Positions 28,895 to 61,708 are shown, numbered from the stretch's first letter. The stretch: DNA of 64,000 nt from Spirochaetia bacterium (GCA_963662795.1 OY759746.1:2112001-2176000); one strand, 5' to 3'. Notes: a model not told the origin generated them from the letters alone. Made by a program: numbers and translations.

Positions 28895-29059
28895 AGCGGT
28901 TCAAGCGTTTCGCTCGGAGTACCTCGCTTGGCCTACGGCAAACATCGTAGGGTATTTACTACTCCTGTTGGGAACAACACTGTTCAAGAGAGAGAAAGTT
29001 TATCTTAATGTTAAATAATCTTTATCTACGATGCTTCGCTTAACCGCGGGACGTTATAT
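28888..29059 (+). repeat. Long attC, family D
   Basis: TAAC 28891 ... GTT 29053. Confidence 0.8.
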
Positions 29060-29109
29060 GCAATACGACCCCAAGAGAAATCGCCCGGACCTCCGGCCCA
29101 CGGGCGAAG

Positions 29110-29181
29110 AAAAGATGATTTACTGTATAATACACTCTATATATAAAATATATAGTTTTCTAGTTATTTAATATGTTATCT
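29110..29181 (+). other. Putative internal attI-like docking site
   Basis: ctgTATAAT...atatatagttttctagttatttaatatGTT (29175). Confidence 0.65.
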
Positions 29182-29263
29182 TCACAACATCATATGCAAG
29201 CCTTGTACATGAGAGCTTTATAGTGTACAATATATGTGCAAATATGTACATGACGGTGGTGAA

Positions 29264-30370
29264 ATGAATAATAAACCCAATAATGGATTACCTTTACTCC
29301 CTCCAAAAGAAAAATTAGAAAATATTACAGTGTTACGAAAAGCAATAAAAGCTAATACAGAATTGGCAAAACTGAATGGGTATTGCTCTACAATCCCCAA
29401 TGAAAACATTTTGTTGAATGCAATAATACTAAATGAAGCAAAAACCAGCTCAGAAATAGAGAATATAATCACTACTCATGATGAAATTTACAAAGCATTA
29501 CTAAAAAAAGACGGAAAATATGATCCTGAAACGAAAGAAGTATTAAATTATAGAGAAGCAATATGGCAGGGTTATAATTTAATAACAGAGACTAATATTC
29601 TAACTACAAATACAATTGTTAGAATTCAAGAAACGCTGGAAAAAAATAAGGCTGGAATAAGAAAATTACCTGGAACGAAATTAATGAATGATCAAACCGG
29701 TGAAGTAATATATACACCTCCAGATGATGAGAAAATTATAAGAGATTTATTAAGAAATCTTGAAGAATACATCAATATTGATGATGAGATAGATCCGCTA
29801 ATAAAACTTGCAATAATTCATTATCAGTTTGAATCTATACATCCTTTTTATGATGGAAACGGCAGAACTGGAAGAATTATTAATGTTTTATACCTTGTAT
29901 TAAAGGGATTGTTGAAATCTCCAATACTTTATTTGAGTAGTTATATAATAAAAAACAAAGGAAATTATTATAATTATCTGCAGAAAGTAAGAAATGAAAA
30001 TGACTGGGAAAGCTGGGTAATGTTTATGTTGGAGGCTGTAGAAAAAACTTCATTAGAAACATTAAGTACTGTAAAAGCAATTAGAGATTTGATGGAAGAA
30101 ACAATTGAATATTGCAGAGAAAAAATGTCAAAATCAAGTTATTCAAAAGAATTAATTGAATTGCTTTTTGTTCAACCTTATACAAAAATTGATTTTCTGG
30201 TGAATAACAATATTGCTGAAAGAAGAACTGCAAGTAAATATTTATCGCAGCTGGAAGAACTTGGAGTGTTAGAATCATTTAAATCCTGGAAAGAAAAAAT
30301 ATATATAAATAAAAAATTATATAAACTATTAAGAGGATCAGAAGATAACAAAAAATTGGAGCAGATTTGA
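29264..30370 (+). CDS. Fic family protein (DUF4172 + Fic + wHTH)
   Basis: HPFYDGNGRTGR. Confidence 0.92.
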   Translation: MNNKPNNGLPLLPPKEKLENITVLRKAIKANTELAKLNGYCSTIPNENILLNAIILNEAKTSSEIENIITTHDEIYKALLKKDGKYDPETKEVLNYREAIWQGYNLITETNILTTNTIVRIQETLEKNKAGIRKLPGTKLMNDQTGEVIYTPPDDEKIIRDLLRNLEEYINIDDEIDPLIKLAIIHYQFESIHPFYDGNGRTGRIINVLYLVLKGLLKSPILYLSSYIIKNKGNYYNYLQKVRNENDWESWVMFMLEAVEKTSLETLSTVKAIRDLMEETIEYCREKMSKSSYSKELIELLFVQPYTKIDFLVNNNIAERRTASKYLSQLEELGVLESFKSWKEKIYINKKLYKLLRGSEDNKKLEQI

Positions 30371-30448
30371 TTTTTGTCATGTAAATTGCGAAAGCAATTT
30401 ACATGACAACCCTGCGGGACAATCGAGCAGCTCAATTTGGCGTTAGCT
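30343..30448 (+). repeat. Short classical attC of inner Fic cassette
   Basis: GAAGATAAC complements cassette start GTTATCTTC; aaattggagc/gctcaattt arms; GTT 30442. Confidence 0.8.
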
Positions 30449-30526
30449 ATACTGGAATATTTAGAAAAGAGGAAAAGTCCGGCCTTGGCGGTGCCGTGCG
30501 GCCTGGACAAGAAGGGGTCGTACTGT

Positions 30527-31496: not shown

Positions 31497-31498
31497 TC

Positions 31499-32862: not shown

Positions 32863-33016
32863 GCATAACAGCGAATGACCGGTTCCGGCTGTTTCTAAGG
32901 AAACAGCCTCCACCCAAATTGCCGAAATAATACATGTTAAGAATAATGGAATAGAGTATAAACTTTTGGAGTGAAAAACACCATCGGCAACTTCGGTCAT
33001 TCGCGAGACGTTATGC
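32863..33016 (+). repeat. Long attC, family C
   Basis: TAAC 32866 ... GTT 33010. Confidence 0.8.
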
Positions 33017-33065
33017 TCAATACCAGCCGCAAGAAGAAATCGCCCGGACCTCCGGCCGACGGGCG

Positions 33066-33141
33066 AAGAAAACTTGATCTGCTGTATAATATGCTTTATA
33101 CATAAAAATATATAGTTTTCTAGATATTTAATATGTTCTAC
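33066..33141 (+). other. Putative internal attI-like docking site
   Basis: ctgTATAATatgctttatacataaaaatatatagttttctagatatttaatatGTT (33135). Confidence 0.65.
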
Positions 33142-33231: not shown

Positions 33232-33924
33232 ATGAAATTTGAATTAGAAGAGTATAACAGAAATATTTCTTCTCAAGAAATGATTGATGATCTTCAAAAA
33301 GTTGCAAAAAAGCTTAATAAAAAAAGCGTTACAATCTCTGAATATGAAGAATTCGGAAAATTTCATCCTCATTCAATTCAAAATAGATTTCATTCATGGA
33401 ATAATTCTCTAAAAGAAGCGAATTTAGAAATTAACAGAGAAGTGAATATATCGGATGAAGATCTTTTTAGAAATATTGAAAATGTATGGATTACACTAGG
33501 CCGTCAGCCAAGATATACCGAGATCAAAAAGCCTATTTCACAATTTTCGACGAAACCATATGAAACAAGATTCGGAACATGGAGAAAAGCTCTTGAAGCA
33601 TTTGTTCTATACATAAATTCAGATGAAGAAGCTGAAAATGAAAACCATGATTCTATTTCTAAAGGATCAAAAAATAATTCTGAAACAGTAAAATTCGTTC
33701 ATAAAACTAAACGAGATATCTCAGAAAGATTAAGATTTAAAATATTAATGAGAGATGGTTTTACGTGCAAGAAGTGTGGACGGAGTCCCATGAAAGAAAT
33801 GGGAGTTGAACTTCATGTTGATCATATTATTCCGTGGTCAAAAGGTGGTGAAACCATACCTGAAAATCTAGAAACAAAGTGTAAGGAATGCAATTTGGGA
33901 AAAGGTAATGCATTTAATGTTTAA
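33232..33924 (+). CDS. HNH endonuclease with N-terminal homing-endonuclease-associated repeats
   Basis: RDGFTCKKCG...LHVDHIIPWSKGG...NL...CKECNLGK; two RF(G/H)(T/S)W..AL-type repeats. Confidence 0.88.
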   Translation: MKFELEEYNRNISSQEMIDDLQKVAKKLNKKSVTISEYEEFGKFHPHSIQNRFHSWNNSLKEANLEINREVNISDEDLFRNIENVWITLGRQPRYTEIKKPISQFSTKPYETRFGTWRKALEAFVLYINSDEEAENENHDSISKGSKNNSETVKFVHKTKRDISERLRFKILMRDGFTCKKCGRSPMKEMGVELHVDHIIPWSKGGETIPENLETKCKECNLGKGNAFNV

Positions 33925-33957
33925 TACAATCTTGATTGATAATATGTCGGAATAAAA

Positions 33958-34800
33958 ATGAAATGTCTATTCAGTAATGAGCAAGCAGACACAGAAGAAC
34001 ATATAATTCCTAAATGGTTGCAGAAGAAATATAACTTATACAATCAACTTCTAACAATACCTAATGGCACAAGAATTCCATATACAAAGGTAAAAATCCC
34101 TGTTCGTTCTGAAGACAACTTAATATTTGGAAATATTGAGAAAAATATTTCTGAAGGTAAATACAATATTGATGAAATCTATCTTTGGGGTTTCAAAATA
34201 CATATTGGATTGCTCATGATGGATTCTAAATTGAAAATTAATAGAAAGGATTCTTATTCAGATACAATATTTAATATTGAAGACTTTTCCACTCAACTAG
34301 ATTTATTTCAAAAACTATATTCACATTGGAAGGATGGTAAAACGACTCTTCCAAAATCTATAGGAAGTGTATTCATTCTCAACTCAACATTAGATGAAAA
34401 TCAGTTTGATTTTGTTCATTGTATCAAAACAAATACAATCTTGATCTCTTTCAATAGAATTTGCATCTTAGTGTTTTTATTTGATAATAATGATGCTTTT
34501 AATCATAAGATTGATCGCTCGTGGAATAACGACTTCATTAATAGACCAAATATCTCAAAAGAAGAAAAGTATATTGCCCAGCGAGTATGGGCTTGTGAAA
34601 ATTCTTATCATGCATATAAGAGAATGAGAGATATTCATTTAAAGGAAGTTGATGATACATTGGTCTTACAGCAAACAGAGCCTCATATTAAAGGAGAATA
34701 TTCAAAAGATGAATTCTCTAAAATATGCAAAATGTTTGGGATAGTACTCGAGGAATATAATAATTTTGCCATAAATAGGTACAATGTCTATGTTGAATGA
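33958..34800 (+). CDS. Hypothetical protein with degenerate HNH-like N-terminus
   Basis: CLF...TEEHIIPKW. Confidence 0.55.
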   Translation: MKCLFSNEQADTEEHIIPKWLQKKYNLYNQLLTIPNGTRIPYTKVKIPVRSEDNLIFGNIEKNISEGKYNIDEIYLWGFKIHIGLLMMDSKLKINRKDSYSDTIFNIEDFSTQLDLFQKLYSHWKDGKTTLPKSIGSVFILNSTLDENQFDFVHCIKTNTILISFNRICILVFLFDNNDAFNHKIDRSWNNDFINRPNISKEEKYIAQRVWACENSYHAYKRMRDIHLKEVDDTLVLQQTEPHIKGEYSKDEFSKICKMFGIVLEEYNNFAINRYNVYVE

Positions 34801-34807
34801 TAACGCC

Positions 34808-34924
34808 GTAGAACAAAAAGTTGAACCTGACATTCCCTTTGTCACGCTTTGTGCAGTCGCTACGCTCCTTGGCACAAATCGTGCCAAGCCCTTCGGGCAC
34901 GGGAACGCAGGTCAATTGGGCGTT
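34808..34924 (+). repeat. Short classical attC, interrupted at its GTT by IS1182
   Basis: CCGTAGAAC complements start GTTCTACGG; ttgaacctg/caggtcaa arms. Confidence 0.75.
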
Positions 34925-36680
34925 GAGGCTGTAGATAAAGTGTAAATTTTCAACAATTGCTTTATATCCAGATATTCCCATGATAAAATTCTATCAGACT
35001 GGGAGATTACAAAATGGGTAAATACAAAGAGTATTCTTATGAACAAAAAGTGCTGCTGCCGATAGATTTTTCCGAGCAGGTTCTTCCCGGAACCTTTGAA
35101 CACACACTCAATTTTCTCATTGACCGGGAAATTGATTTAACCATGTTTTATGAAAAACATAAAAATGATGAAAATGGAGCTCCCGCCTACGATCCGGCGA
35201 TCTTACTGAAGATAATTCTTTTTGCTTATTCACGGGGAATTATTTCCAGCAGAAGAATTGCCCGATTATGTCGGGAAAATGTCGTTTGCATGTCCCTCTC
35301 CGCAGATACCCGGCCGCACTTTAGCACCATAGCTGATTTTATTTCTACGATGGATAAAGAAATCGCTCCCCTGTTTACCCGGATTCTCTCGGTCTGTTAC
35401 GCCAATAACGTCATCGATAAAAACATGTTTGCCATCGACGGCTGCAAGATTTCTTCCAATTGCTCAAAGGAATGGAGCGGAACGAAAAAAGAACTGCTAA
35501 AAAAAGCGGGAAAGATAGAGGAATCTATCAAATACCTGTTGGAAAAACATAAACAGGAAGATAAAAGCCGGTATAGTCAAAGTCAGGAAGAGAAAGAAAA
35601 GGCTTCGATAGAGAAACTGAAAGCTAAATCCCAAAAGATCCATGACTGGCTGAACTCAAATGACGATAGAATGGGAAGCCAGGGGAAACCAATAAAAAGC
35701 AATATTACCGACAATGAAAGCGCGAAGATGTCCACCTCCCATGGAGTTATCCAGGGTTATAACGGAATTGCGGCGGTTGATGAAAAGAACCAATTAATCG
35801 TTTGGGCGGAAGCATTTGGCGACAGCAATGAATCCAAACATTTCCCCGAGATTCTGGATGGAATAAAAAACAATTTTAAATCGATTCAGGCATCGGAAGA
35901 TATCTTGAAAGAAACAGTGATTACCGCCGACAGCGGTTTTCATAATGATAATAATATGAAGCTGATTGTGGAAAATAACCTGACAGCCTTTGTCGCGGAC
36001 AACCAGTTTCGAAAGAGGGATGTGAGATTTGCATCAGCCCAGAAACATAAACAAAAACCTGTCACGAATTGGGAACCTGCCAAAGGGAAAAAATATTACT
36101 CAGTAGATGATTTTATCTATGATGAAAATACAAAGAAATTAATGTGCCCAGCTGGTTTCGAAATGAAACTGAAGTGCAGGAACTTTCAAAGCTCTGGCTA
36201 TAGTGGAACATCCTACATAGGGAGAAAGGAAAACTGCTTAACCTGTCCGCTAAGAAAGAAGTGTATACGTAAAGAGAGCACGGAAGTCAGACAGGTGACC
36301 AGGTTTGATAGTAGTCGGGGAAAAGAAAAGGTCTCATTTACAGAACGAATGAGGAGAGTCTTTGACGCGCCTGAAGGTCGGAGTATCTACAGTAAAAGAA
36401 TGGGTACTGTAGAACCGGTGTTTGGAAATATCCGATCGACACTGGGGTTAAATTATTTTACACTGCGAAGTAAGAATAAGGTAAATGTTCAATGGTTGCT
36501 TTTCTGTATTGTGCATAACATTGGAAAAATACAGAGGTATGCGGAAGCATAGGGGAAAATAGAGGATGAAATGAATCAGGGATTACATTTTGACCTCACA
36601 AGACAATCTTATGGACTTTATGATCTTGTAGAATGGGAGAAGTAAATGAAGATTGAAAATCGGGGTTTTTCTACAGCCTC
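34925..36680 (+). mobile_element. IS1182 family IS
   Basis: IR gaggctgtaga / tctacagcctc; GTT duplicated on both sides. Confidence 0.88.
35014..36552 (+). CDS. IS1182 family transposase
   Basis: GAPAYDPAILLK, SSRRIA, AIDGCK, ADSGF, Zn ribbon, VEPVFGNI. Confidence 0.93.
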   Translation: MGKYKEYSYEQKVLLPIDFSEQVLPGTFEHTLNFLIDREIDLTMFYEKHKNDENGAPAYDPAILLKIILFAYSRGIISSRRIARLCRENVVCMSLSADTRPHFSTIADFISTMDKEIAPLFTRILSVCYANNVIDKNMFAIDGCKISSNCSKEWSGTKKELLKKAGKIEESIKYLLEKHKQEDKSRYSQSQEEKEKASIEKLKAKSQKIHDWLNSNDDRMGSQGKPIKSNITDNESAKMSTSHGVIQGYNGIAAVDEKNQLIVWAEAFGDSNESKHFPEILDGIKNNFKSIQASEDILKETVITADSGFHNDNNMKLIVENNLTAFVADNQFRKRDVRFASAQKHKQKPVTNWEPAKGKKYYSVDDFIYDENTKKLMCPAGFEMKLKCRNFQSSGYSGTSYIGRKENCLTCPLRKKCIRKESTEVRQVTRFDSSRGKEKVSFTERMRRVFDAPEGRSIYSKRMGTVEPVFGNIRSTLGLNYFTLRSKNKVNVQWLLFCIVHNIGKIQRYAEA

Positions 36681-36772
36681 GTTATATGGAATCGAGAAAT
36701 GCAATAAGAATTTATTACCATAGAACAATAAAATTTGATATAATGATTTAAAATCTAAATTACAGAGGGCTT

Positions 36773-37618: not shown

Positions 37619-37757
37619 ATATAACAAGAGATTTGGAGTAGTCAAAACCTTTGGCGCAGTTCTGGCTAAAGACACTCCGCGCTGATCGCGCTACGTTCCA
37701 GAACTGCGCCAAGCCTCGTAGATTCGATCGGTTTCGCTACTCAAATCGTCGTTATAA
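37619..37757 (+). repeat. Classical attC of inner cassette
   Basis: TCCATATAAC complements start GTTATATGGA; gatttggagtag/ctactcaaatc arms; GTT 37751. Confidence 0.8.
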
Positions 37758-37832: not shown

Positions 37833-37979
37833 GCATAACAGAGGATAAAGCGCTTCGCTCCCTTTGGTCGCTTGGGCTTCGCCACACATCGCAGCTGAAA
37901 ATTAGAATGTTCTTGTATAAACTAGTTTGTTTTATGTATTTAAAAATGCGATGCGTCGCTTATCCTCGGGACGTTATGC
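37833..37979 (+). repeat. Long attC, family A
   Basis: TAAC 37836 ... GTT 37973. Confidence 0.8.
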
Positions 37980-38029
37980 TCAATACCAGCCGCAAGAGGA
38001 AATCGCCCGGACCTCCGGCCGACGGGCGA

Positions 38030-38104
38030 AGAAAATTGAATCTGTTGTATAATGTACTTTATACATAAACATATATAGTTTTCTATTTATTTAATATGTT
38101 ATGT
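38030..38104 (+). other. Putative internal attI-like docking site
   Basis: ttgTATAAT...atatatagttttctatttatttaatatGTT (38098). Confidence 0.65.
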
Positions 38105-38149: not shown

Positions 38150-39553
38150 ATGATAAACAAAATGGATCAAAAATTTACATTTCAAGATGAAATTATATTA
38201 AAAGGTAAATGGTGGGTTAGCTCAGATAATAAATTACCTGGAACTTTTCAATTTATTCCAGGTCAAAAAAATGAGTTATTATTATCTGGAACTTTGAATG
38301 AAAATGACACAATAATTAGAAATACAATAGATTATGGAAATGGTAAATATAAAATAATTGAACCACTAAATAAAAAATATACAATTTATGGTTTAACAGA
38401 AACTAATCAAAAGATAACTCTTATAAATTGTATATTGACTAAGCAAGATAACTTTTTTGATGATACTAAACTTAAAACTACATATCGGATTCAATACTGT
38501 ATATTTGATGAATATATAAATGATCTCGAAACTCTCAAAATAAAATCTCTTAGTGTATATATGGAAGGGATTTTGCAATTTATTAATAGATACAATGATA
38601 CATTTATTAATCCTAATGAATTGATGGAAGTATTAATTAAAACATACGAAATAAATGACTTTAAAGTATCATTAAAATCTAAACTTTTTAAAACTAATGA
38701 ATTTGAATTAAATAGCACGACTCAAAATGTATACAAAATGAAACCTTATATCGAAGTTACTAGTGTAGAAAACATAAAAAGTTACGATGACATGATTAAT
38801 ATTTTTGATAAATTTAAAGATCTTATAATATTGGGACTAAATAATTCAGTAGAGATAAATTCGATAAATGTAGAATTTGATAATAAAATAATAAATGTCA
38901 TATTCTTACACGAGTACAGATATAAATTAAGAATAAATTATGAAATATTTAAATTATTTGATATTAATGAAGCAATAATTATAAAATGGTTTGAATTATA
39001 TAGTAAAATTCCTAATATAATACAATTACTGAGATCAACAATTCAAAATGAACATGCAAAGCGATTATTTATTGATAATAAATTCTTTAATCTCGCATCA
39101 ATCTTTGAATCTTTACATCACTTTATTTATACCGATAGATTTATAAGAAAAAATGAAAATGAAGATACTATAAAAAAAATTGAATTAATTTATAAAGAAT
39201 TAATGTCTCATAAGAATATGCTTTTTGAATCCTATTTTAAAGTTATCCCAGCTGAAATAAGACAAGATTTTTACTTTCATCCTTTATCGATTACATTTAA
39301 AGACAGATTACTATATTCAATAGATAATTATGTAGATTATTTTAATGATATATCTCCTCTCGAAATGTGTGAAAAAATTAAGAATAAAAGAAATGGAATA
39401 GCTCATGCATTTAATGACATGAAAATGAATGGATTAGAAATCCATAATTTAAATTTAATTTTAAAAAGGCTCATATACTTAGAAATATGTAATTATTTGG
39501 GTATTGATACTAAAATCAATAATATAATAAAACATACATTTAAAACTATATAA
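38150..39553 (+). CDS. ApeA-like HEPN domain protein (putative anti-phage RNase)
   Basis: KGKWW..GTF, IYG.T...KITLINC N-terminal domain; C-terminal RNGIAH. Confidence 0.7.
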   Translation: MINKMDQKFTFQDEIILKGKWWVSSDNKLPGTFQFIPGQKNELLLSGTLNENDTIIRNTIDYGNGKYKIIEPLNKKYTIYGLTETNQKITLINCILTKQDNFFDDTKLKTTYRIQYCIFDEYINDLETLKIKSLSVYMEGILQFINRYNDTFINPNELMEVLIKTYEINDFKVSLKSKLFKTNEFELNSTTQNVYKMKPYIEVTSVENIKSYDDMINIFDKFKDLIILGLNNSVEINSINVEFDNKIINVIFLHEYRYKLRINYEIFKLFDINEAIIIKWFELYSKIPNIIQLLRSTIQNEHAKRLFIDNKFFNLASIFESLHHFIYTDRFIRKNENEDTIKKIELIYKELMSHKNMLFESYFKVIPAEIRQDFYFHPLSITFKDRLLYSIDNYVDYFNDISPLEMCEKIKNKRNGIAHAFNDMKMNGLEIHNLNLILKRLIYLEICNYLGIDTKINNIIKHTFKTI

Positions 39554-39565: not shown

Positions 39566-39682
39566 ACATAACAAACATTTTAACCGGTCCGGATTTTTAT
39601 TATGCATTTTGCCCGCTTCGTTCAAATGCAATATACACGCCAACACTTCGTGACAATCCAGCAGGTTAAATGGATTTTATAA
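39566..39682 (+). repeat. Degenerate inner attC (R' GTT mutated to TTT)
   Basis: AAACATAAC complements GTTATGTTT; cattttaacc/ggttaaatg arms. Confidence 0.7.
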
Positions 39683-41782: not shown

Positions 41783-43057
41783 CATAGGTGTCCAAAACAA
41801 TCATAACAGCTCCAGTTGAAGATTGAAACTAGTTTTTTTAGTCTGTTCTGAAGGCGGTTTATTGAGAACAGTCCAGATATCTTTTCTTGATGTCAGTATT
41901 ACAGGAATCAATTTCATCAGTGAAAAATGAGTCCATTTTCTACATGAAAACATTTTAAGGAACTGAAGTAACAGAAAAGCAATTAGGGCAATCCAGATTT
42001 GTGTCATTACAGCATTTCTGGAAGTACCAAAGAATTTCTTGATCTTGAGGTTCTGTTTGATAGTTTTAAAAAATATTTCAATCTGCCATCTGTCTTTGTA
42101 AACAGCAGCAATTGTTGTTGGAGACCAAAGGAAATTATTGGTAAGAATTACAATATATTTACCGGTTTCAGGATCTCTGCTTCTGATTCGTCTTAATTTT
42201 AACGGGCATTTTTTACTGGTGTAAAATCCTTTCATTTCTATGATCTGATCAGATGTAATATTTTTAAAGGAGGAGGTATCTTTTCTCTGGACAATTTTAT
42301 AATCAGCATTCTTTTTTAACCTGGTAACAAAATAAATACCGGTATTACAATAATTTGCGAATAATTTAAAGTCAGTATAACCACGATCAAACGTGATGAC
42401 ATCGCCTTTGTTGAAAGCCATTTTTTTCAAGGAATTGACTTCATGTGTTTTTGCAGTTGTAACTGATACAAAAGCTGGAATATATCCACTATGGTCAAGT
42501 TTTACATTAAGTTTTATTCCGCCTTTATATTTTCTGAAATTTGCCCATGGAAAGAGATTTAAACACAAGTCAATAGTTGATGCATCAACACTGTAAAGAG
42601 GATTTTTAAATTTATGTTTATGCGCTCTCTTCATGGATAATATCTTATCAAGAAGATCAGTGAAAACATTTTCATAAACTTCACAGCTTCTATTATTATT
42701 TGCGTAAGATAATGTAGAGCGTTTTACCTTTTTTACACCCATATGATAAAGGTGGTTACTGATTGATTCAAAAGAGTTTTCAATGCCTCTTAACCCGGTC
42801 TGTCCTGAAAGTTGTGCAAAGAGCATGGAGACAAAATGCTGCCAACAGGTAAAACCTTTGGAAGCAAAGTCCCCTTTATGTTTTTTTACAGATTTTTCAA
42901 ATTCATGTCTCGGAATTATTTGTAGAATTTGTTTTAAAATGGTATTATTGTAACTCATTGCCTGATTTCCTTTTCCTGTAAAGAATTAGCCGTCCAAGCT
43001 TAATTCATTATAGTTGGGATTTCAGGCAATTAATAGTCCTTGTTTTGGACACCTATG
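41783..43057 (-). mobile_element. IS4 family IS, copy 2, 9-bp TSD aagtaagat
   Basis: Perfect IR cataggtgtccaaaacaa; TSD 41774-41782 / 43058-43066. Confidence 0.93.
41801..42958 (-). CDS. IS4 family transposase
   Basis: Nearly identical to 11369..12526. Confidence 0.95.
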   Translation of the reverse strand: MSYNNTILKQILQIIPRHEFEKSVKKHKGDFASKGFTCWQHFVSMLFAQLSGQTGLRGIENSFESISNHLYHMGVKKVKRSTLSYANNNRSCEVYENVFTDLLDKILSMKRAHKHKFKNPLYSVDASTIDLCLNLFPWANFRKYKGGIKLNVKLDHSGYIPAFVSVTTAKTHEVNSLKKMAFNKGDVITFDRGYTDFKLFANYCNTGIYFVTRLKKNADYKIVQRKDTSSFKNITSDQIIEMKGFYTSKKCPLKLRRIRSRDPETGKYIVILTNNFLWSPTTIAAVYKDRWQIEIFFKTIKQNLKIKKFFGTSRNAVMTQIWIALIAFLLLQFLKMFSCRKWTHFSLMKLIPVILTSRKDIWTVLNKPPSEQTKKTSFNLQLELL

Positions 43058-43417: not shown

Positions 43418-43587
43418 GCATAACAGAGGATAATGCGCTTCGCTCCCTTTGGTCGCTTGGGCTTCGCCACACATCGTAGATTTTGAACTACAACTTCTAT
43501 AAAAAATAAGTTTTGGAAGAAAAATATTGTAGCTTGAAATAATAATTCTTGGGCTACGATGCGTCGCTTATCCTCGGGACGTTATGC
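43418..43587 (+). repeat. Long attC, family A
   Basis: TAAC 43421 ... GTT 43581. Confidence 0.8.
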
Positions 43588-43637
43588 TCAATACCAGCCG
43601 CAAGAGGACGCCGCCCGGACCTCCGGCCGACGGGCGA

Positions 43638-43712
43638 AGAAAATAGAATCTGCTGTATAATATACTTTATACATAAACATATATAGATTTCTAGTTATTT
43701 AATATGTTAGAT
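43638..43712 (+). other. Putative internal attI-like docking site
   Basis: ctgTATAATatactttatacataaacatatatagatttctagttatttaatatGTT (43706). Confidence 0.65.
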
Positions 43713-43735: not shown

Positions 43736-44683
43736 ATGACAATCTCCAACGACGACAAAATATTGATAATTGGTGGTGGGGCAATCGGATTCTCTCTCGC
43801 TGTTCACCTAAAGCATTCGGGAAAAAAAGTTGCCGTAGTCCGTGTTAGTACTAAGCTAGAAGAAGCTACTACTCAGAAAGTATCTGTAGTGGACTTGAAC
43901 AATAAAACATTAGTGCAGGAAATAGACTGCTACTCGCTAGAAAGCATAGAGAAAATTCAAGGAACAGTTGTTGTCGCTACAAAAGCTAATGCAAACATTC
44001 AGATTGCTGATGTTTTAGAGAAGAATGCCCACGAAATAAATCTGGTGATAATGCAAAATGGAATTGGGGTAGAAAACCCTTTCTTAGAAAAAGAATTCCA
44101 TAGCATCTTCCGGTGCGTAGTATATATAACTGCAGAAAAGACAGGGCCAGAATCCTTTTCTGCTCGAATGATCAAACCATCTCCAATTGGAATTATTAGT
44201 GATAAAAAGGAACCTAAAGAAAGGCTTGCAACAATACTTTCTACAAACGGTCTATCTTTTTACGAAGAAGATAACATTGAAAAAGAAGTATGGAAGAAAG
44301 GAATCGTCAATGCTGTCTTCAATTCAATATGCCCATTAATTGAAGTTGATAATGGGATTTTTGCCCGAGATAACAATATCCTCGAACTAGCAAGAAAAAT
44401 AGTTATGGAATGTGTTCCCATTGCAGGCGAGCAAGGAATTTTATTAAACACTGAGGAAATTATTGACCAAATTATTCAAATCAGTAAACGTTCTACAGGA
44501 CAGCTAATCTCAACCCTTCAAGATATTCGTAAAAATCGGGAGACTGAAATAAATTTTCTGAATTTAGAAATATGTAGAATTGCTAAGACACTTACTCCTC
44601 CTATTAGCCTTCCAATAACAGAAGCCCTTGGGGAACTCATACTTAAGAAGTCAGAACAAAGAGTAAATGATGAAATGAAGTGA
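43736..44683 (+). CDS. panE: Ketopantoate reductase (ApbA/PanE family)
   Basis: IIGGGAIG, VATKA, MQNGIG, WKK.IVN, STLQDI...RETEI.FLN. Confidence 0.8.
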   Translation: MTISNDDKILIIGGGAIGFSLAVHLKHSGKKVAVVRVSTKLEEATTQKVSVVDLNNKTLVQEIDCYSLESIEKIQGTVVVATKANANIQIADVLEKNAHEINLVIMQNGIGVENPFLEKEFHSIFRCVVYITAEKTGPESFSARMIKPSPIGIISDKKEPKERLATILSTNGLSFYEEDNIEKEVWKKGIVNAVFNSICPLIEVDNGIFARDNNILELARKIVMECVPIAGEQGILLNTEEIIDQIIQISKRSTGQLISTLQDIRKNRETEINFLNLEICRIAKTLTPPISLPITEALGELILKKSEQRVNDEMK

Positions 44684-44785: not shown

Positions 44786-44823
44786 ATCTAACAATCGCTT
44801 ACAGCTGAAGCGGAATGTTATAA
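44786..44823 (+). repeat. Internally deleted inner attC remnant
   Basis: AAATCTAAC complements GTTAGATTT; cgctt/aagcg arms; only about 32 bp. Confidence 0.6.
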
Positions 44824-44901
44824 AAATAAAAAATAGAAAAGGGAAAGAAGTCCAGCCTTGGCTCCGCCGTGCGGCCTGGACAAGAAGCGGCTGGTACTGG
44901 A

Positions 44902-45071
44902 GCATAACAGAGGATAATGCGCTTCGCTCCCTTTGGTCGCTTGGGCTTCGCCACACATCGTAGATTTTGAACAACAACTTCTATAAAAACAAGTTTTTGA
45001 AGAAAAATATTATAACTTTGAAATAATAATTCTTGGGCTACGATGCGTCGCTTATCCTCGGGACGTTATGC
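44902..45071 (+). repeat. Long attC, family A
   Basis: TAAC 44905 ... GTT 45065. Confidence 0.8.
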
Positions 45072-45171
45072 TCAATACCAGCCGCAAGAGGAAACCGCCC
45101 GGACCTCCGGCCCACGGGCGAAGAAGAATTATTTTAAAAAGTGAATTATAATAAACAAAATTACCAAAAAA

Positions 45172-47286: not shown

Positions 47287-47456
47287 GCATAACAGAGGAT
47301 AAAGCGCTTCGCTCCCTTTGGTCGCTTGGGCTTTGCCACACATCGTAAGTTTTAAATTACAACTTCTATAAACAACAAGTTTTAGAAGAAAATATTACAA
47401 CTTTGAAAAATTCATTCTTGAACTACGATGCGTCGCTTATCCTCGGGACGTTATCC
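47287..47456 (+). repeat. Long attC, family A
   Basis: TAAC 47290 ... GTT 47450. Confidence 0.8.
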
Positions 47457-47505
47457 ACAATATCATCGCAAGAGAACGCCGCCCGGACCTCCGGCCAACG
47501 GGCGA

Positions 47506-47547
47506 AGAAAATAGAATCTGCTGTATAATATACTTTATAGTTAAGAT
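47506..47547 (+). other. attI-like site truncated by IS4
   Basis: aaaatagaatctgctgTATAATatactttat, then IS. Confidence 0.55.
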
Positions 47548-48822
47548 CATAGGTGTCCAAAACAAGGACTATTAATTGCCTGAAATCCCAACTATAATGA
47601 ATTAAGCTTGGACGGCTAATTCTTTACAGGAAAAGGAAATCAGGCAATGAGTTACAATAATACCATTTTAAAACAAATTCTACAAATAATTCCGAGACAT
47701 GAATTTGAAAAATCTGTAAAAAAACATAAAGGGGACTTTGCTTCCAAAGGTTTTACCTGTTGGCAGCATTTTGTCTCCATGCTCTTTGCACAACTTTCAG
47801 GACAGACCGGGTTAAGAGGCATTGAAAACTCTTTTGAATCAATCAGTAACCACCTTTATCATATGGGTGTAAAAAAGGTAAAACGCTCTACATTATCTTA
47901 CGCAAATAATAATAGAAGCTGTGAAGTTTATGAAAATGTTTTCACTGATCTTCTTGATAAGATATTATCCATGAAGAGAGCGCATAAACATAAATTTAAA
48001 AATCCTCTTTACAGTGTTGATGCATCAACTATTGACTTGTGTTTAAATCTCTTTCCATGGGCAAATTTCAGAAAATATAAAGGCGGAATAAAACTTAATG
48101 TAAAACTTGACCATAGTGGATATATTCCAGCTTTTGTATCAGTTACAACTGCAAAAACACATGAAGTCAATTCCTTGAAAAAAATGGCTTTCAACAAAGG
48201 CGATGTCATCACGTTTGATCGTGGTTATACTGACTTTAAATTATTCGCAAATTATTGTAATACCGGTATTTATTTTGTTACCAGGTTAAAAAAGAATGCT
48301 GATTATAAAATTGTCCAGAGAAAAGATACCTCCTCCTTTAAAAATATTACATCTGATCAGATCATAGAAATGAAAGGATTTTACACCAGTAAAAAATGCC
48401 CGTTAAAATTAAGACGAATCAGAAGCAGAGATCCTGAAACCGGTAAATATATTGTAATTCTTACCAATAATTTCCTTTGGTCTCCAACAACAATTGCTGC
48501 TGTTTACAAAGACAGATGGCAGATTGAAATATTTTTTAAAACTATCAAACAGAACCTCAAGATCAAGAAATTCTTTGGTACTTCCAGAAATGCTGTAATG
48601 ACACAAATCTGGATTGCCCTAATTGCTTTTCTGTTACTTCAGTTCCTTAAAATGTTTTCATGTAGAAAATGGACTCATTTTTCACTGATGAAATTGATTC
48701 CTGTAATACTGACATCAAGAAAAGATATCTGGACTGTTCTCAATAAACCGCCTTCAGAACAGACTAAAAAAACTAGTTTCAATCTTCAACTGGAGCTGTT
48801 ATGATTGTTTTGGACACCTATG
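47548..48822 (+). mobile_element. IS4 family IS, copy 3, no TSD
   Basis: IR cataggtgtccaaaacaa / ttgttttggacacctatg. Confidence 0.93.
47647..48804 (+). CDS. IS4 family transposase
   Basis: Identical protein to copy 2. Confidence 0.95.
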   Translation: MSYNNTILKQILQIIPRHEFEKSVKKHKGDFASKGFTCWQHFVSMLFAQLSGQTGLRGIENSFESISNHLYHMGVKKVKRSTLSYANNNRSCEVYENVFTDLLDKILSMKRAHKHKFKNPLYSVDASTIDLCLNLFPWANFRKYKGGIKLNVKLDHSGYIPAFVSVTTAKTHEVNSLKKMAFNKGDVITFDRGYTDFKLFANYCNTGIYFVTRLKKNADYKIVQRKDTSSFKNITSDQIIEMKGFYTSKKCPLKLRRIRSRDPETGKYIVILTNNFLWSPTTIAAVYKDRWQIEIFFKTIKQNLKIKKFFGTSRNAVMTQIWIALIAFLLLQFLKMFSCRKWTHFSLMKLIPVILTSRKDIWTVLNKPPSEQTKKTSFNLQLELL

Positions 48823-48828
48823 ATTTAA

Positions 48829-49307: not shown

Positions 49308-49499
49308 GTATAACAGCGATTATTTCGCTGCGCTCCCTGTGGTCGCTTGGGCTCCTGCCAGTTGAGCTGGCAGATCGCCATATTTTGTTTTCATAAAACC
49401 GGAACAACATGTGCTTTGTGCTCTTCAAGTTTGTAAAAACCAAATAAAAGTATTTTAGAGTTTAGTCACAAAACATCGAATAATCGCGAGACGTTCTCC
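49308..49499 (+). repeat. Long attC, family B
   Basis: TAAC 49311 ... GTT 49493. Confidence 0.8.
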
Positions 49500-49741
49500 G
49501 AAATACCGCCCCAAGATGCGATCGCCCGGACCTCCGGCCCACGGGCGAGGGAAGACGGGCAAACAATTGTGTCTAATTTTAAATCAAAAGTATCTTATCA
49601 GCATTAAAGGATTAGGATAATTAATCTAATGTAAAGAATGCTAAATAAATCTCAATAAATTATATTGAAATTAAAAAGATGTATTGTATATTAAGAGTTT
49701 TAAGTGTATACTGTTGAGTGTATACTTAAAGAGGTTGAATT

Positions 49742-49981
49742 ATGGAAATAAGCACAAAAGAGCTCAGAATAAAACCTGGTAGAATTATTGAAAAAGTCTC
49801 ACATGGACAGGAAGTTGTGGTAACTTTTAGAGGAAAAGCATTAGCTAGAATAGTTCCTATGGCTAATCACAACAAAAGTATTGACGAGAAAGAAGAACTT
49901 TTTGGATTATGGAAAAACCATAAAGATATTGAGAATGTTGATAAGTATGTAAGAAAGATGAGAAGAGGAAGAGAATTTTGA
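49742..49981 (+). CDS. Phd-type antitoxin (duplicate of 13867)
   Basis: Near-identical sequence. Confidence 0.85.
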   Translation: MEISTKELRIKPGRIIEKVSHGQEVVVTFRGKALARIVPMANHNKSIDEKEELFGLWKNHKDIENVDKYVRKMRRGREF

Positions 49982-50355
49982 TAATCGATACAGATGTTAT
50001 AATATGGTATCTAAGAGGAAATGAAAAAGCAAAAGAATTAATATATAAAAATATACCATTTAAAATGTCAGTAATAACTTATATGGAAATTGTGCAGGGG
50101 ATGAAAGATAAAAAAGAATTATTGATATTTCAGAAACATATAAGAAAATGGGATGTTGAAATAATACAAATAGATACTGAAATATCTTCAAGAGCAATGT
50201 TTTTTGTAGAAGATTATTTTTTAAGTCATTCAATGGAATTATCAGATGCATTAATTGCAGCGACAGGAATACAGACAAAAGATGTTATATTAACAGCAAA
50301 TGATAAACATTATAAATTTATCCCTAACATACAACTGGAAAAGTTTAAACCTTAG
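49978..50355 (+). CDS. vapC: VapC PIN toxin (duplicate of 14109)
   Basis: Identical protein. Confidence 0.9.
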   Translation: MIIDTDVIIWYLRGNEKAKELIYKNIPFKMSVITYMEIVQGMKDKKELLIFQKHIRKWDVEIIQIDTEISSRAMFFVEDYFLSHSMELSDALIAATGIQTKDVILTANDKHYKFIPNIQLEKFKP

Positions 50356-50408
50356 AACGCCCAAGCCTTGGCGGTGCCGTGCGGCTTGGAAGAGAGGGGC
50401 GGTACTTC

Positions 50409-50579
50409 CGAGAACAGAGGATAAAGCGCTTCGCTCCCTCTGGTCGCTTGGGCTTCGCCACACATCGTAGGTTTTGAACTACAACATTTATAAACAACAA
50501 GTGTTGGAAGAAGAATATTGCAGCTTTGAAATATTCATTCTTAGGCTACGATGCGTCGCTTATCCTCGGGACGTTATAT
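50409..50579 (+). repeat. Long attC, family A (same as 14540)
   Basis: GAAC 50412 ... GTT 50573. Confidence 0.8.
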
Positions 50580-51493: not shown

Positions 51494-51620
51494 GTAATGG
51501 CCAGGCAAGAGAAAATCGCCCGGACCTCCGGCCGACGGGCGAGGATATGCGGTATAATTATATTATTATCGAATAAAAATTGACAATTTTTGCATAATGT
51601 AATACAATATGTAATACGAG

Positions 51621-52275: not shown

Positions 52276-52465
52276 AAAAGGTGATGTAATAATAAGTAAT
52301 ATTTTTACAGTAATTAGAATTATGGAACAAAACAAGCATTTGAAATTGACGTTTTCTCACTTTGCTGAGAAAGAGCAATTCAAATGAATGGTATAAATTA
52401 TGTATAGAAAAGAATGTCCAGCCTTGGCTCCGCCGAGCGGCTTGGACAAGAAGCCTGGCCACTAC

Positions 52466-53386: not shown

Positions 53387-53558
53387 GGATAACAGAGAAT
53401 AATTCGCTGCGCTCGGAGTACCTCGCTTGGCCTGCGGCACACATCGCAGGTTTTTAGCAACAACTTATATAAATAACAAGTTTTGAAAAAAAAATATTGC
53501 AACTGTGAAATATTGACTCTTTGCCTACGATGCGTCGCTTATCCTCAGGACGTTATAG
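53387..53558 (+). repeat. Long attC, family A
   Basis: TAAC 53390 ... GTT 53552. Confidence 0.8.
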
Positions 53559-57798: not shown

Positions 57799-57971
57799 GG
57801 ATAACAGAGGATAAGGCGCTTCGCTCCCTTTGGTCGCTTGGCCTTTGGCATATTTTGCTATCATTAGAACCAAGTGATTTAAATTTAATACTTTTTGAGA
57901 TTTTAAAATAACAAACAAATATCTGTTAGAGTTTTCAACGCAAAACATCGCTTATCCTCGGGACGTTATGC
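57799..57971 (+). repeat. Long attC, family A
   Basis: TAAC 57802 ... GTT 57965. Confidence 0.8.
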
Positions 57972-58020
57972 TCAATACCAGCCGCAAGAGGACGCCGCCC
58001 GGACCTCCGGCCGACGGGCG

Positions 58021-58095
58021 AAGAAAATAGAATCTTCTGTATAATATACTTTATTTATAAGATATATAGTTTTCCAGTTATTTAATATGTTATCT
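58021..58095 (+). other. Putative internal attI-like docking site
   Basis: ctgTATAATatacttt...atatatagttttccagttatttaatatGTT (58089). Confidence 0.65.
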
Positions 58096-58680: not shown

Positions 58681-61305
58681 ATGTTTAAACGTATTTCTGC
58701 TCAAAAAGGTGATAAGCTAACCCAAATCTTTATTTTATTGTTCATACTCCCCATTTTTCTGATGTTTTTTTTATCATGTATGTCTTTAAATCAATCTGGC
58801 AGCGAAAAATCACTTAGTTTTAGAGAATCACATGATAATTTTATCCAATTTTTGAACGAGCATCCTGATTATCAACCTTTAAGCAGCCGTGTCAATTTAA
58901 TTCAGCTGACAGAATATGCTGATATTATTCCTCTCTCTTATGATAAAACTCCGGCGAACAGAACACAAACCTTTAGAATGGACACTCTTTTTGAAAGTGG
59001 GCCGAAAGTTTATTATCTTAATGGATTTTTTTATTATTTTTATGTAATTAAAGGTATGATAAAAGGAGTTAAAATTGATTTAAAAAATAGAACTTATTCA
59101 AATGTTGACGTGTCATCAAATAAACATTTTGCAATTTACCGTGATCCAGCTAATGAAAAGTTGGAATTAATCCCATTCGGCCGGGATTTTACAAAGACGA
59201 AAGTTGTTTCTTCAAAAGGGGGTAGTCTCCCTTTCTACGGGACACATGAAGCTTTATGTCTTGATCCTCCTCTTTATATCTATGAAAGTTCAAGAGAAGG
59301 ATTTCCTCTGGAATCGTTTCTTATAATTCCCCGTGATTTAGATGGCTTGGGTAAAATTATGTATGAAGAAAATTACTATAAAAATGGATATAATCTGGTT
59401 ACTGGTCTTGATAAAAAAGGATTTGATCGTAACGGTTATGATAAAGATGGTTATGCACACCATGGCTATAACAGGAAAGGTTATGACAGGGATGGTAATA
59501 ATTATTCAGGACCAATAGGGGCTAATGGGAAAACTGGTTTTGGAACACTTAAGTGGGCCAACGGTGATGTATATCATGGGTACTTTCAGAATAATGAAAT
59601 TAACGGTATGGGGATCATTAATGGTACAGATGGTGCAATATATGCAGGCTCTTTCCAGGAAGAAATGAAAATAGGTCAGGGGCTCCTTTACTCTCCAGAT
59701 GGAACAAAAAAGTTGGTGTCATGGAAAGATGGAGAAATGTATATAATTTCATCAAATCCTGGACAAGTGATTGAGCCAGATGGGGAGTGGGCATTCCTTG
59801 GTAAAGGTGTTAAAAATGGACTGGCTCAGGGAAGAGGAGATGCTGTAGGAATAAAAAGTGGATGGATAATTACTAACGGTCTATTTGAACAGGGCCGCTT
59901 AATTGAAGGCTCTCTTCTTACTGTTAATGGAACATCATATAGAGGCCGTTTTACTGATGGACTTCTTTCAGATGGCAAAATCCTGTCAGCCAATGGCACT
60001 GCATATACCGGTCATTTAAGGAATGGAATCCCGGATGGTGCAGGGCAGCAAGTGGATAAAGACGGGATATTCTATGAGGGGAATTTTTCAAACGGACGAT
60101 TTGAGGGTAATGGAGAATTAACGCTTCAAAATGGCGATGTTTATAATGGAGCATTTGTTAATGGAGTTCCTCATGGTAGCGGTATATATAAAAACTCTAC
60201 CGAAGGAAGTATAGAGAAGTGCGAGTTTTACGAAGGAAAAAGAATTGATCAACTCTACTTAATGAAAATAGCATTGGCAGAAGAAGAAGACAAAAAACTA
60301 GCAGAGGGTGAGCGGTTAAAACTGGAAGAGGAAGTTAGGTTGCGAGAGGAAAAAGCCAGACAACAGGCGGCTGAAAATGTAGAAAAGAAAGCTTCAAAAA
60401 AGAACTTATTCGGTGCCTTTGTCGCAGGAGCATCAACTGTTGTAGTCGGGAATGCTTATGGTTTGGATTCCAGTGACACTTTATTGCTGGCAACAGCTGC
60501 GGCAAAAGATGTAATAAGTGATACTGATGGAGAAAATATAAGAGCTATGAGTGATACACTAATTGAAAATAAAAAGCAGATGAAAACCTGGGAATCAAAA
60601 TATGGTCAATCCGACTTATCAAATGTATCAGGCAGCAATACTTTCTTGTCCCAAAAACAGCAGCCATTGCAAGACATAAATAATAATCCAGCAGATAAGA
60701 ATCCAGTTCTCACAAATTTGAAATCCAGAGCATCCAGTAATAATGCGGAAATTCCAAAGAAAAATCCTTTAGCTGAACCACCGCAGATGAATAAGGAAAT
60801 TAAATCAGAAAATAACAAATTACTCGATCTACCTAAATCAAATAAAAGCGGGAGGAGTGTTCTTCGCGGGTTAATTGATCGTGATGTGCGTTATTCTCCT
60901 GAATACAGGACCGGTGAGGTTACCTTTAGAAATCCTCAGACTGGGATAGAAAGTATTACAATTAAACTGAATAATGGAGCCATAGGTGAATTAACCTGGA
61001 ATGGGAATTATAAATGGATTGCTGCCAATGGCTATAATCAAAAATCGCCATATCTAGTTGGTTGTGTAGTTGAATTGAGCAGTGAACAAAACAAAATATA
61101 TGTTCTTATGAGCCACAATGATGTTGTTCCAACAGATGCAGGTGATAAATATGGCTATAATTTAGCATGGAGTGCAAACGGGTCAACTTTGAAGAGTGTA
61201 TCTGGCAGTCAATTTACACCATTCTCCAAGGAAGAAACTTCAGCAATTTTTGAAGATTTGCATTATTCCAGTTATCAACCCACTGCTGCTTGGCTAGTTT
61301 GGTAA
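58681..61305 (+). CDS. MORN-repeat putative lipoprotein
   Basis: Lipobox-like FFLSC; GYDKDG repeats; many Y.G.F.NG..HG.G MORN repeats; coiled coil. Confidence 0.8.
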   Translation: MFKRISAQKGDKLTQIFILLFILPIFLMFFLSCMSLNQSGSEKSLSFRESHDNFIQFLNEHPDYQPLSSRVNLIQLTEYADIIPLSYDKTPANRTQTFRMDTLFESGPKVYYLNGFFYYFYVIKGMIKGVKIDLKNRTYSNVDVSSNKHFAIYRDPANEKLELIPFGRDFTKTKVVSSKGGSLPFYGTHEALCLDPPLYIYESSREGFPLESFLIIPRDLDGLGKIMYEENYYKNGYNLVTGLDKKGFDRNGYDKDGYAHHGYNRKGYDRDGNNYSGPIGANGKTGFGTLKWANGDVYHGYFQNNEINGMGIINGTDGAIYAGSFQEEMKIGQGLLYSPDGTKKLVSWKDGEMYIISSNPGQVIEPDGEWAFLGKGVKNGLAQGRGDAVGIKSGWIITNGLFEQGRLIEGSLLTVNGTSYRGRFTDGLLSDGKILSANGTAYTGHLRNGIPDGAGQQVDKDGIFYEGNFSNGRFEGNGELTLQNGDVYNGAFVNGVPHGSGIYKNSTEGSIEKCEFYEGKRIDQLYLMKIALAEEEDKKLAEGERLKLEEEVRLREEKARQQAAENVEKKASKKNLFGAFVAGASTVVVGNAYGLDSSDTLLLATAAAKDVISDTDGENIRAMSDTLIENKKQMKTWESKYGQSDLSNVSGSNTFLSQKQQPLQDINNNPADKNPVLTNLKSRASSNNAEIPKKNPLAEPPQMNKEIKSENNKLLDLPKSNKSGRSVLRGLIDRDVRYSPEYRTGEVTFRNPQTGIESITIKLNNGAIGELTWNGNYKWIAANGYNQKSPYLVGCVVELSSEQNKIYVLMSHNDVVPTDAGDKYGYNLAWSANGSTLKSVSGSQFTPFSKEETSAIFEDLHYSSYQPTAAWLVW

Positions 61306-61415
61306 AAACTAAAAATATAATAAAGCTTCTATGTATTCATTTACATAGGAGCTTTTTAAATTAATTTAAAATCAAAAAAGTATTACATGCTAATTGAAAT
61401 CAATATGAGATGTTT

Positions 61416-61459
61416 AGATAGCAAACGATTCGAGCAGCCCGCTCAATCGGGCGTTATAA
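61416..61459 (+). repeat. Degenerate inner attC remnant (TAAC to TAGC, internally deleted)
   Basis: TAGATAGC approximately complements start GTTATCTA; cgattcgagc/gctcaatcg arms; GTT 61453. Confidence 0.6.
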
Positions 61460-61538
61460 AAATCAAAAGGTAAAAAAGAGAAAGAAGTCCAGCCTTGGCT
61501 CCGCCGTGCGGCCTGGACAAGAAGCGGCTGGTACTGGA

Positions 61539-61708
61539 GCATAACAGAGGATAATGCACTTCGCTCCCTTTGGTCGCTTGGGCTTCGCCACACATCGTAG
61601 ATTTTGAACAACAACTTCTATAAAAACAAGTTTTTGAAGAAAAATATTATAACTTTGAAATAATAATTCTTGGGCTACGATGCATCGCTTATCCTCGGGA
61701 CGTTATTT
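61539..61708 (+). repeat. Long attC, family A
   Basis: TAAC 61542 ... GTT 61702. Confidence 0.8.

Follow-up and report, generated by a model that had tools for sequence, protein, structure and literature searches.

The 64,000-nt stretch of a Spirochaetia bacterium genome considered here (GCA_963662795.1, OY759746.1:2112001-2176000; 'the window' below) corresponds to G000:C1:2,112,001-2,176,000, G000 being our label for this genome, a single contig of 3.93 Mb with 39.7% GC. The window lies within one cassette array, which a search for conserved hairpin cores delimits to ~1,847,951-2,180,100 (~334 kb) and which contains ~169 5' hairpins, all on the + strand, that is, ~170 cassettes of a long format. 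Our subject is a subfamily of 28 of these cassettes, which we call carriers. As the first-pass annotation of the window had proposed, they hold classical cassettes with short attC sites at one conserved internal G/TT (the slash marks a junction), always in one orientation and with inner content that differs from carrier to carrier.

Read from 5' to 3', a long-format cassette begins with G/TT and a 20-nt barcode, followed by AAGAG, a 5' hairpin (GCCCGGACCTCCGGCC…GGGCG), often a TATAAT-like box, and then its content. The 3' part consists of an A/G-rich run, a 3' hairpin (GTCCAGCCTTGGC…GGAC), AAGAAG and a barcode complementing the cassette's own 5' barcode; after this 3' barcode come AAC and a ~190-nt attC with the terminus …TTATCCTCGGGAC/GTT. 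Because duplicate cassettes have differing upstream neighbours, the cassette boundary is placed at AC/GTT; one such pair of host cassettes, at approximately 13618-14706 and 49493-50575, has identical 5' leaders and 3' ends and differing preceding attCs. The barcode after each host cassette's G/TT complements the one before its own R'' (for example 43581-43601 with 44887-44908), extending the R stem to ~27 bp; a single mismatch recurs in this pairing, A-C when read on the top strand and G-T when read on the bottom one. The bottom strand of long attC plus barcodes folds into a single long hairpin, as calculated for the host attC with barcode extension at 44880-45090 on the - strand (-42.1 kcal/mol, z -7.1). 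The first-pass annotation had spoken of the hairpins as those of host-type cassettes; since 5' and 3' hairpins flank nearly all cassettes of the array, they belong to its general format and are not specific to carriers.

In a carrier, the motif …TTATTTAATAT/GTT lies 80-100 nt 3' of the 5' hairpin. At its G/TT stand one or two classical short-attC cassettes, amounting to 1.1-5.7 kb of inserted content per carrier and closed by one or two short attCs, after which the carrier's own tail (GTTATAAAA… or GTTATACTGG…) resumes. This right half comes in two variants, GTTATAAAA…GAAGTCC and GTTATACTGGAATATTTAGAAAAGAGGAAAAGTCC, the second being tied to one barcode lineage. When the window was searched with the pattern TAGTTATTTAATATGTT, allowing up to three mismatches, 11 matches were obtained, where 1.75 were expected and 100 shuffles never gave more than 5.

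The window holds six complete carriers, one carrier cut by an insertion sequence (IS), and the right end of one more. All features below are on the + strand unless stated otherwise, and bit scores refer to the covariance model of short attCs introduced further on. The carrier represented by its right end, with its left half 407 nt before the window, has an inner open reading frame (ORF) for an AAA_13 ATPase (272-1801), a short classical attC closing the inner cassette (1825-1900; 55.1 bits), a right half GTTATAAAAAAT from 1894 and a 3' hairpin from 1919. The first complete carrier has its left half at 11232-11346, comprising G/TT, barcode, 5' hairpin, AT-rich motif and a docking GTT at 11344, and its inner short attC at 13275-13380 (92.7 bits) with the right half from 13374; an IS4-like element with a 385-aa DDE_Tnp_1/DUF4372 transposase (11351-12626, - strand) sits 7 nt after the docking GTT. 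The second (left half 29053-29177, with a barcode of the ATATGC lineage, TATAAT, motif and GTT at 29175) encloses an ORF of the Fic/DOC family (SoFic-like, 29234-30370) and a short attC with R'' GAAGATAAC (30343-30448; 90.7 bits), followed by right-half variant B (GTTAGCTATACTGG…) from 30442 and the 3' hairpin from 30477. In the third (left half 33010-33137, GTT at 33135), a first inner cassette with ORFs for an HNH endonuclease and a 280-aa protein without Pfam match (33232-34800) is closed by a short attC at 34808-34928 (70.6 bits), whose R'' CCGTAGAAC complements GTTCTACGG; a second short attC follows at 37619-37757 (64.4 bits), with the right half GTTATAAGAAAA from 37751. The fourth carrier (left half 37973-38100, GTT at 38098) holds an ORF for an ApeA-like HEPN protein (38150-39553) and a short attC with R'' AAACATAAC (39566-39682; 84 bits), the right half starting at 39676 (TTTATAAAA).

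The fifth, which served as the reference copy (left half 43581-43708, GTT at 43706), contains an ORF of the ketopantoate reductase family (43736-44683) and a minimal inner attC of ~38 nt with R'' AAATCTAAC (44786-44819), found by eye and missed by the model, with the right half from 44817. The seventh copy of the motif belongs to the left half at 47450-47539 that is cut inside the motif by an IS4-like element (47547-48823), as had been reported initially, and the sequence behind this IS is that of another cassette. The last complete carrier (left half 57965-58091, GTT at 58089) has an 874-aa ORF with MORN repeats (58681-61305), a short attC whose R'' has one mismatch (61416-61459; 34.8 bits), a right half from 61453 and a host attC ending at 61704. 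In addition, a decayed short attC with a degenerate right half (52327-52396; 26 bits) lies in a host cassette without recognisable motif, possibly a decayed carrier. The six docking GTTs just given were all listed in the first-pass annotation and are all present on the + strand with 0-1 mismatch in the motif; its right halves (1894, 13374, 30442 as a variant, 37751, 39676, 44817 and 61453) were likewise found, except that the one at 39676 starts with TTT instead of GTT.

As to the left junctions, IntI crosses over between G and TT, and the 5' end of a cassette complements its own R''. Within the window, the complementarity claimed initially between the bases after the docking GTT and the inner R'' extends over 9 of 9 nt at 29175, 33135, 38098 and 43706 and over 7 nt at 11344 (GTTATAC with R'' GTATAAC); at 58089 it is broken by one mismatch, as the R'' there ends in AGC, not AAC. 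For the array as a whole, each inner cassette start was also tested against the other carriers as a cross-control. A complement of the first 9 nt of the inner cassette, usually the R'' of the inner attC, was found in its own carrier in 13/28 cases versus 19/752 in the cross-carrier control, and with 8-mers the figures were 17/28 versus 53/750. The junction triplet is GTT in 23 of the 28 carriers and the next base is A in 25. On the right side, the signature GTTAWA is present in 23/28 carriers versus ~7/110 other cassettes; the latter figure rules out the idea that all ordinary host cassettes are decayed carriers.

The inner attCs form a coherent family: when 17 of them are aligned, their R''/L'' and L'/R' ends prove conserved and an inner stem is common to them. 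A covariance model built from these 17 G000 sites was searched against 340 kb (E<=1). It returned 34 matches on the + strand, 17 of which are the training sequences and match by construction, while its 13 matches on the - strand are weaker echoes at the same places. Twenty-nine of the 34 lie inside carriers (24 of the 28), four lie just before the 3' hairpin of host cassettes with a short or decayed leader, and one is a weak outlier (16 bits, E 0.87). No standalone short-attC cassette in the array backbone is found among the 34 matches in the 340 kb, the 33 credible ones all being inside long-format cassettes. In the 24 carriers with a match, the last inner attC ends 18-43 nt 5' of the carrier's 3' hairpin; all 29 inner attC matches are on the + strand and all inner ORFs are in the sense direction.

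The inserted content itself is varied. The first inner cassette differs in all 28 carriers, and content is shared between carriers only as copies of ISs, which belong to two families. The inner genes are typical cassette cargo and include Fic, HNH endonuclease, ApeA-HEPN, AbiU2-like HEPN, ketopantoate reductase, MORN-repeat and AAA_13 ATPase proteins. The first-pass annotation had called the inner cassettes foreign, for which composition gives no support (28.7% GC in inner cassettes versus 26.9% in ordinary cassettes and 39.7% in the genome). Its tandem of two inner cassettes in the unit at 33010 stands as far as the two short attCs are concerned; the start of the second cassette is unreadable, an IS copy beginning ~15 nt before the GTT of the first attC. 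This 1785-bp IS, with a 512-aa DUF772/DDE_Tnp_1_6 transposase, occurs in a like place in two carriers (34907-36691 in the window and 2,074,684-2,076,468 in G000), 99.9% identical and starting ~15 nt before the inner attC GTT in both, so that it may target attC; the possibility that two carriers hold the same inner cassette was dismissed, as the 1785 bp they share are this IS. The IS4-like element has three copies (11351-12626 on the -, 41801-42958 on the - and 47547-48823 on the + strand), two of which lie in the docking motif or 7 nt after it, and the copy at 47547 joins parts of two cassettes.

The arrangement is not confined to one line of descent within the array. The 5' and 3' barcodes are of one type in 23/25 carriers, 4-6 barcode lineages are represented among carriers, and the position of the motif is the same in these lineages and in a set of cassettes with shorter leaders. 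At least three such further host cassettes have a leader ending in …TATAATAGTATAT/GTT or …TATAATAATATAT/GTT and nest alike; two of them are duplicates of one cassette (…CAGTATAATAGTATAT/GTTAGAAG, R'' CTTCTAAC), and the R'' complement is also present in a further one at 1922370. These variants suggest that the essential site probably extends from TATAAT to AT/GTT and does not comprise the full 60 bp. The matched barcodes in 4-6 lineages suggest that carriers spread as entire long-format cassettes and acquired their inner cassettes independently, or else that empty ones multiplied first.

Carriers also occur elsewhere: filled ones are present in three genomes of the sister genus (G005, G008 and G011) and on two metagenome contigs, one of which has a leader without the TATAAT part, while the other has hairpin-like modules within its inner cassette. 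The long-format array of G011 opens with a carrier, whose inner gene (L117:211-861, - strand) encodes a member of the D-Ala-D-Ala dipeptidase family (Peptidase_M15, 86 bits). These sister genomes have an intact canonical IntI (384-400 bits versus a cut-off of 265), with the gene far from the long-format arrays and adjoined by a classical divergent array. In such classical arrays our G000-trained short-attC model scores up to 98 bits, its sites numbering at least 17 in G011 and at least 12 in G005, and the classical arrays of these two genomes are without hairpin modules and long attC ends. The long-format arrays of the sister genomes have both, and a single short-attC match, which is inside a carrier. 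Since the inner attCs are of the family of the canonical IntI arrays, the inner cassettes belong to the classical cassette pool of the clade. A tblastx search for genes common to the G000 inner cassettes and the canonical arrays of G005, G011 and G020, the last a genome of another family, gave attC-level matches only. In G020 itself (L119, G020:C45:1-7000, - strand) the same 5' and 3' hairpin modules are carried by the short-attC cassettes of an array headed by a canonical intI with an apparent frameshift, so that the two cassette formats are related.

Taken together, 28 different first cassettes and, in many carriers, post-GTT matches within the own carrier mean that the left junction must have been remade many times, with the G/TT of the motif as the recurrent crossover point; from insertions at G/TT in one orientation, with varied content and kept across genera, it follows that the site has acted as a non-attC partner of attC, as attI does. 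We therefore consider it probable, with good though incomplete confidence, that carriers are a subfamily with a dedicated internal attI-like docking site into which IntI-type recombination has inserted classical cassettes. On this reading the site, with a core …TTATTTAATAT G/TTAT… located 42-55 nt downstream of a TATAAT box, would be used in double-stranded form. IntI-type recombination of this site with the folded attC of circular classical cassettes would then produce repeated insertions, always in the sense direction, and the captured gene would come to lie behind the promoter-like box of the carrier. Flanked by the carrier's 5' hairpin and barcode on one side and its 3' hairpin, barcode and long attC on the other, the captured gene becomes part of a long-format cassette, and filled carriers would presumably move as units. 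The enzyme responsible for the insertions was probably canonical IntI, a pseudogene in G000 and intact in the sister genomes.

A number of observations weigh against this interpretation. Five of the 28 carriers have a junction triplet other than GTT, and eight show no complement even at the 7-mer level. The left halves of carriers are only ~80-95% identical, from which many of the insertions may be old. The canonical intI of G000 (G000:C1:412,371-413,302) is disrupted by one frameshift and three stop codons (two TGA, one TAG), has IS genes immediately upstream and lies 1.4 Mb away, and no short attC is present in the 60 kb examined around it; the activity of the site in this genome would thus be historical or due to another recombinase. 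The motif copies are 30-320 kb from the recombinase gene nearest to the array and at least 1.4 Mb from the intI pseudogene, so that they lack the adjacency to an integrase gene that attI has.

The site is also unlike attI in sequence. We collected seven native attI candidates, five from canonical integrase loci (G005, G008, G011, G020 and the G000 pseudogene) and two array-proximal ones (G000 and G011). An nhmmer profile of the 28 motifs matched none of the seven, its sole significant match being the G011 carrier, and an anchored position weight matrix placed the seven candidates at fractions of 0.21-0.90 among 10,062 GTT sites of the array, with carriers scoring +8.6 to +44 bits. The overlap with the G020 attI is limited to the short core AATAT/GTTAT. 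On these two tests the candidate that the motif is a copy of attI was rejected; the site may be called attI-like by its apparent behaviour, not by sequence.

Lastly on this side of the balance, no empty carrier was found in G000, in 401 genomes of the class, in metagenome contigs or in the sampled arrays of G005, G008, G011 and G002, a genome of the same genus as G000. In G000 the shortest filled carrier measures 1,099 nt, there are no ORF-less host cassettes and the minimum distance from hairpin to hairpin is 628 nt. The empty junction pattern with one mismatch allowed had five matches outside G000 in the 401 genomes, none with an upstream 5' hairpin, against eight matches of a reversed-pattern control, and the exact pattern had none in the metagenome contigs. 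The array stretches sampled from relatives gave filled carriers only, in proportions to hairpin-bearing cassettes of 1/3 in G008, 2/12 in G011, 1/8 in G005 and 0/4 in G002. The inner cassettes at 33468-34609 and 43746-44316 are left uncovered by contigs of a second organism (X4). One X4 contig has a joint from 29178 to 30448, with 54 nt on its shorter side, that has the look of an empty variant-B carrier; as letters may lie between its two sides, we draw no conclusion from it. Other joints of this type, with sides of ~30 nt, probably come from contigs that carry other inner cassettes. An empty ORF-less carrier is, accordingly, a hypothesis. Of the three grounds that the first-pass annotation had listed for giving up its interpretation, two, a lack of attI resemblance and a lack of empty carriers, are what we found, the third being a failure of the cognate IntI to recombine the motif above background GTT levels; what stands of it is the recurrent insertion at a conserved internal site, conserved in the sister genus and in metagenomes.

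The same two negatives speak for a rival account in which a cassette landed once, by accident, at a chance attG-like GTT in an AT-rich leader, and the resulting chimera was duplicated and its contents diversified by attC x attC and homologous recombination, with no preference for the motif. IntI can indeed insert cassettes at many GWT sites of a genome, as the portion of bioRxiv 10.1101/2022.09.11.507474 on such sites reports. We nevertheless regard this explanation as unlikely. Swapping the first inner cassette requires a crossover at the left junction, and yet first cassettes differ in 28/28 carriers, 13 of which have the 9-nt match within the own carrier. It also leaves one position being used by 4-6 barcode lineages and by short-leader variants, and an arrangement that is conserved across genera.

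It is also doubtful, in our view, that docking is the work of another enzyme, be it the array-head recombinase or some further tyrosine recombinase, for which the AT-rich core would be the cognate double-stranded site to be joined to attC. The array-proximal gene (G000:C1:1,846,782-1,847,801; L003:739-1758) encodes a 339-aa Xer-like tyrosine recombinase; it has the same orientation as the array, from whose first cassette boundary it is 150 bp upstream, and is ~264 kb upstream of the window. On the TIGR02249 profile of integron integrases the protein scores 200 bits versus a cut-off of 265, with profile positions 173-229 absent, and it is without ~38 residues found in the G011 IntI; it has no IntI extra domain. 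The long-format array thus departs from a canonical integron, in which an IntI with the extra domain adjoins attI and array. The closest relatives of the recombinase are in Spirochaetia metagenome-assembled genomes (MAGs). A homologue with 79% identity occurs in G002 and on a near-identical MAG contig, near the contig end; others head a long-attC array in G011 (45% identity, one gene between) and stand in a Spirochaetia MAG (L030; 54% identity) before three ~1-kb units with ~220-nt attC-like repeats. A second Xer-like gene, 37% identical to the array-proximal one and coding for 297 aa, lies inside the array on the - strand (G000:C1:2,050,776-2,051,576). That the intact recombinase heading the G000 array is the Xer-like protein, that its homologues head long-attC arrays and that canonical intI is dead in G000 all speak for such a role. 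The junctions, on the other hand, have the classical IntI signature of G/TT and R'' complementarity, the inner attCs are of the family found beside canonical IntI, and the Xer-like protein is without the extra domain, which is the part of IntI that reads folded attC sites.

Much less probable still is that the motif is a degenerate AT-rich attC and the insertions are ordinary attC x attC events in a cassette with two attCs. The upstream TTTATAC… can pair with …GTTATAAA, and this hairpin is in the minimum-energy fold of 2 of 15 reconstituted sites. Joined in silico, however, the empty sites of the 15 carriers have no stable fold, with energies like those of shuffles (z -2.5 to +0.9), the attC model has no match on the motif at E<=1, and the GTT has no AAC facing it. 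The first two of these grounds led us to reject the motif as an attC. The imperfect, folding palindrome expected of an attC is, by comparison, present in the inner attCs and in the long host attC. The lack of an attC-like fold points to a use of the docking site as double-stranded DNA, as for attI and attG.

The promoter-like box deserves separate consideration. TATAAT stands 42-55 nt before the docking GTT, perfect in 18 of the 28 carriers and with one mismatch in nine, and is retained in four sister-genus carriers. Counting against its function, no -35 accompanies it, and it is not among the best 60 of 109 sites in a consensus promoter scan. We consider it plausible that the box serves as a local promoter for the inner genes. 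The sequence GGATATGCAGTATAAT(A)ATAT follows the 5' hairpin in many ordinary host cassettes (after most 5' hairpins, for example those at 6884-6905 and 51542-51560), and each ordinary cassette may have a -10 box of its own. That there was no recombination at all, the motif being only a promoter or leader and the 'inner attC' a terminator-like hairpin of ordinary cassettes, takes its support from this conserved TATAAT and these similar boxes and is scarcely credible against an R'' complementarity far over control, inner hairpins that belong to the attC family of canonical arrays, and the presence of tandem inner cassettes. As a further feature of ordinary cassettes, a subset has a small conserved hairpin (TGTACAGGTAGAGTAATTACCTGACA-like) just 5' of the 3' module (approximately 23990-24015, 53400-53430 and 57810-57840, and elsewhere in the array). 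An Rfam scan of the window gave no family at the gathering score.

Returning to the docking-site interpretation, one may go a step further and imagine two cassette systems side by side: a classical one, with canonical IntI, its own attI and short attCs, and a long-format one, with an Xer-like head without the IntI domain, barcodes, hairpins and ~190-nt attCs. Carriers would be adaptors between the two, which dock classical cassettes, supply them with a promoter and repackage them, so that the second system could store and mobilise them even once IntI is lost, as in G000. We offer this as a tentative scenario, one that we would at present hold to be possible and not probable. If the docking site is what we suppose, cassettes could be captured at places other than the array head, local expression of captured genes would be possible far inside 330 kb of cassettes, and cassettes could pass between two formats. 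The motif would also be a concrete DNA substrate with which to test which properties make double-stranded DNA a good partner of attC, and a giant array may be run by a recombinase without the hallmark domain of IntI.

Integron biology recognises three types of site, attI, attC and attG, and one platform per array. The docking site would share with attI its role as a non-attC partner, the insertion at G/TT in one orientation, the possibility of stacking new cassettes and a promoter-like box upstream in the manner of the cassette promoter Pc. It differs from attI in being inside mobile cassettes and not beside an integrase gene, in having ~30 copies and in its lack of sequence likeness to the seven candidates. 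Fused or multi-gene cassettes and secondary-site insertions also combine several recombination-derived parts in one unit; these are sporadic and come from attC loss or rare secondary-site events, whereas carriers have a recurrent, conserved architecture. In the openly licensed PMC and bioRxiv literature (subscription papers and supplements being outside this scope) our searches turned up no account of cassettes lying within carriers, and the passages of PMC8352920 on Spirochaetes attCs do not mention a nested arrangement.

Also close in concept is attG. According to bioRxiv 10.1101/2022.09.11.507474, IntI can integrate attC cassettes away from the platform at such double-stranded sites, which have a GWT core and differ from both attI and attC, and a promoter nearby can lead to expression of the inserted cassette. 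As that study describes them, attG sites are numerous and loosely defined, having no conserved sequence or structure. The GTT core and the missing fold of the docking site would agree with this, whereas one conserved ~60-bp motif within a defined module, reused ~30 times and conserved across genera, would not. The Delta-attI-type cassettes of mobile integrons, described in PMC12901181, are bounded by a non-attC site that derives from the integron platform, and are still recombined by IntI1; in them, however, the attI remnant replaces the cassette attC, while a carrier is a complete cassette with its attC retained, and the site within it shows no descent from attI by sequence. The gene-less promoter cassettes of Vibrio superintegrons, described in bioRxiv 10.1101/2023.11.21.568050, bring cassette-borne promoters that drive neighbours deep in a large array; carriers, with their putative promoter, would resemble them in this, and the hypothetical empty carrier would be such a cassette. 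They act on the next cassette across an attC, whereas the cassette driven by a carrier would sit within the putative promoter cassette, of which no empty form was found. Compared with attI, attG, Delta-attI-type cassettes and gene-less promoter cassettes, what would be new in the carriers is that a complete cassette encloses a conserved insertion site and that this site is present many times in one array.

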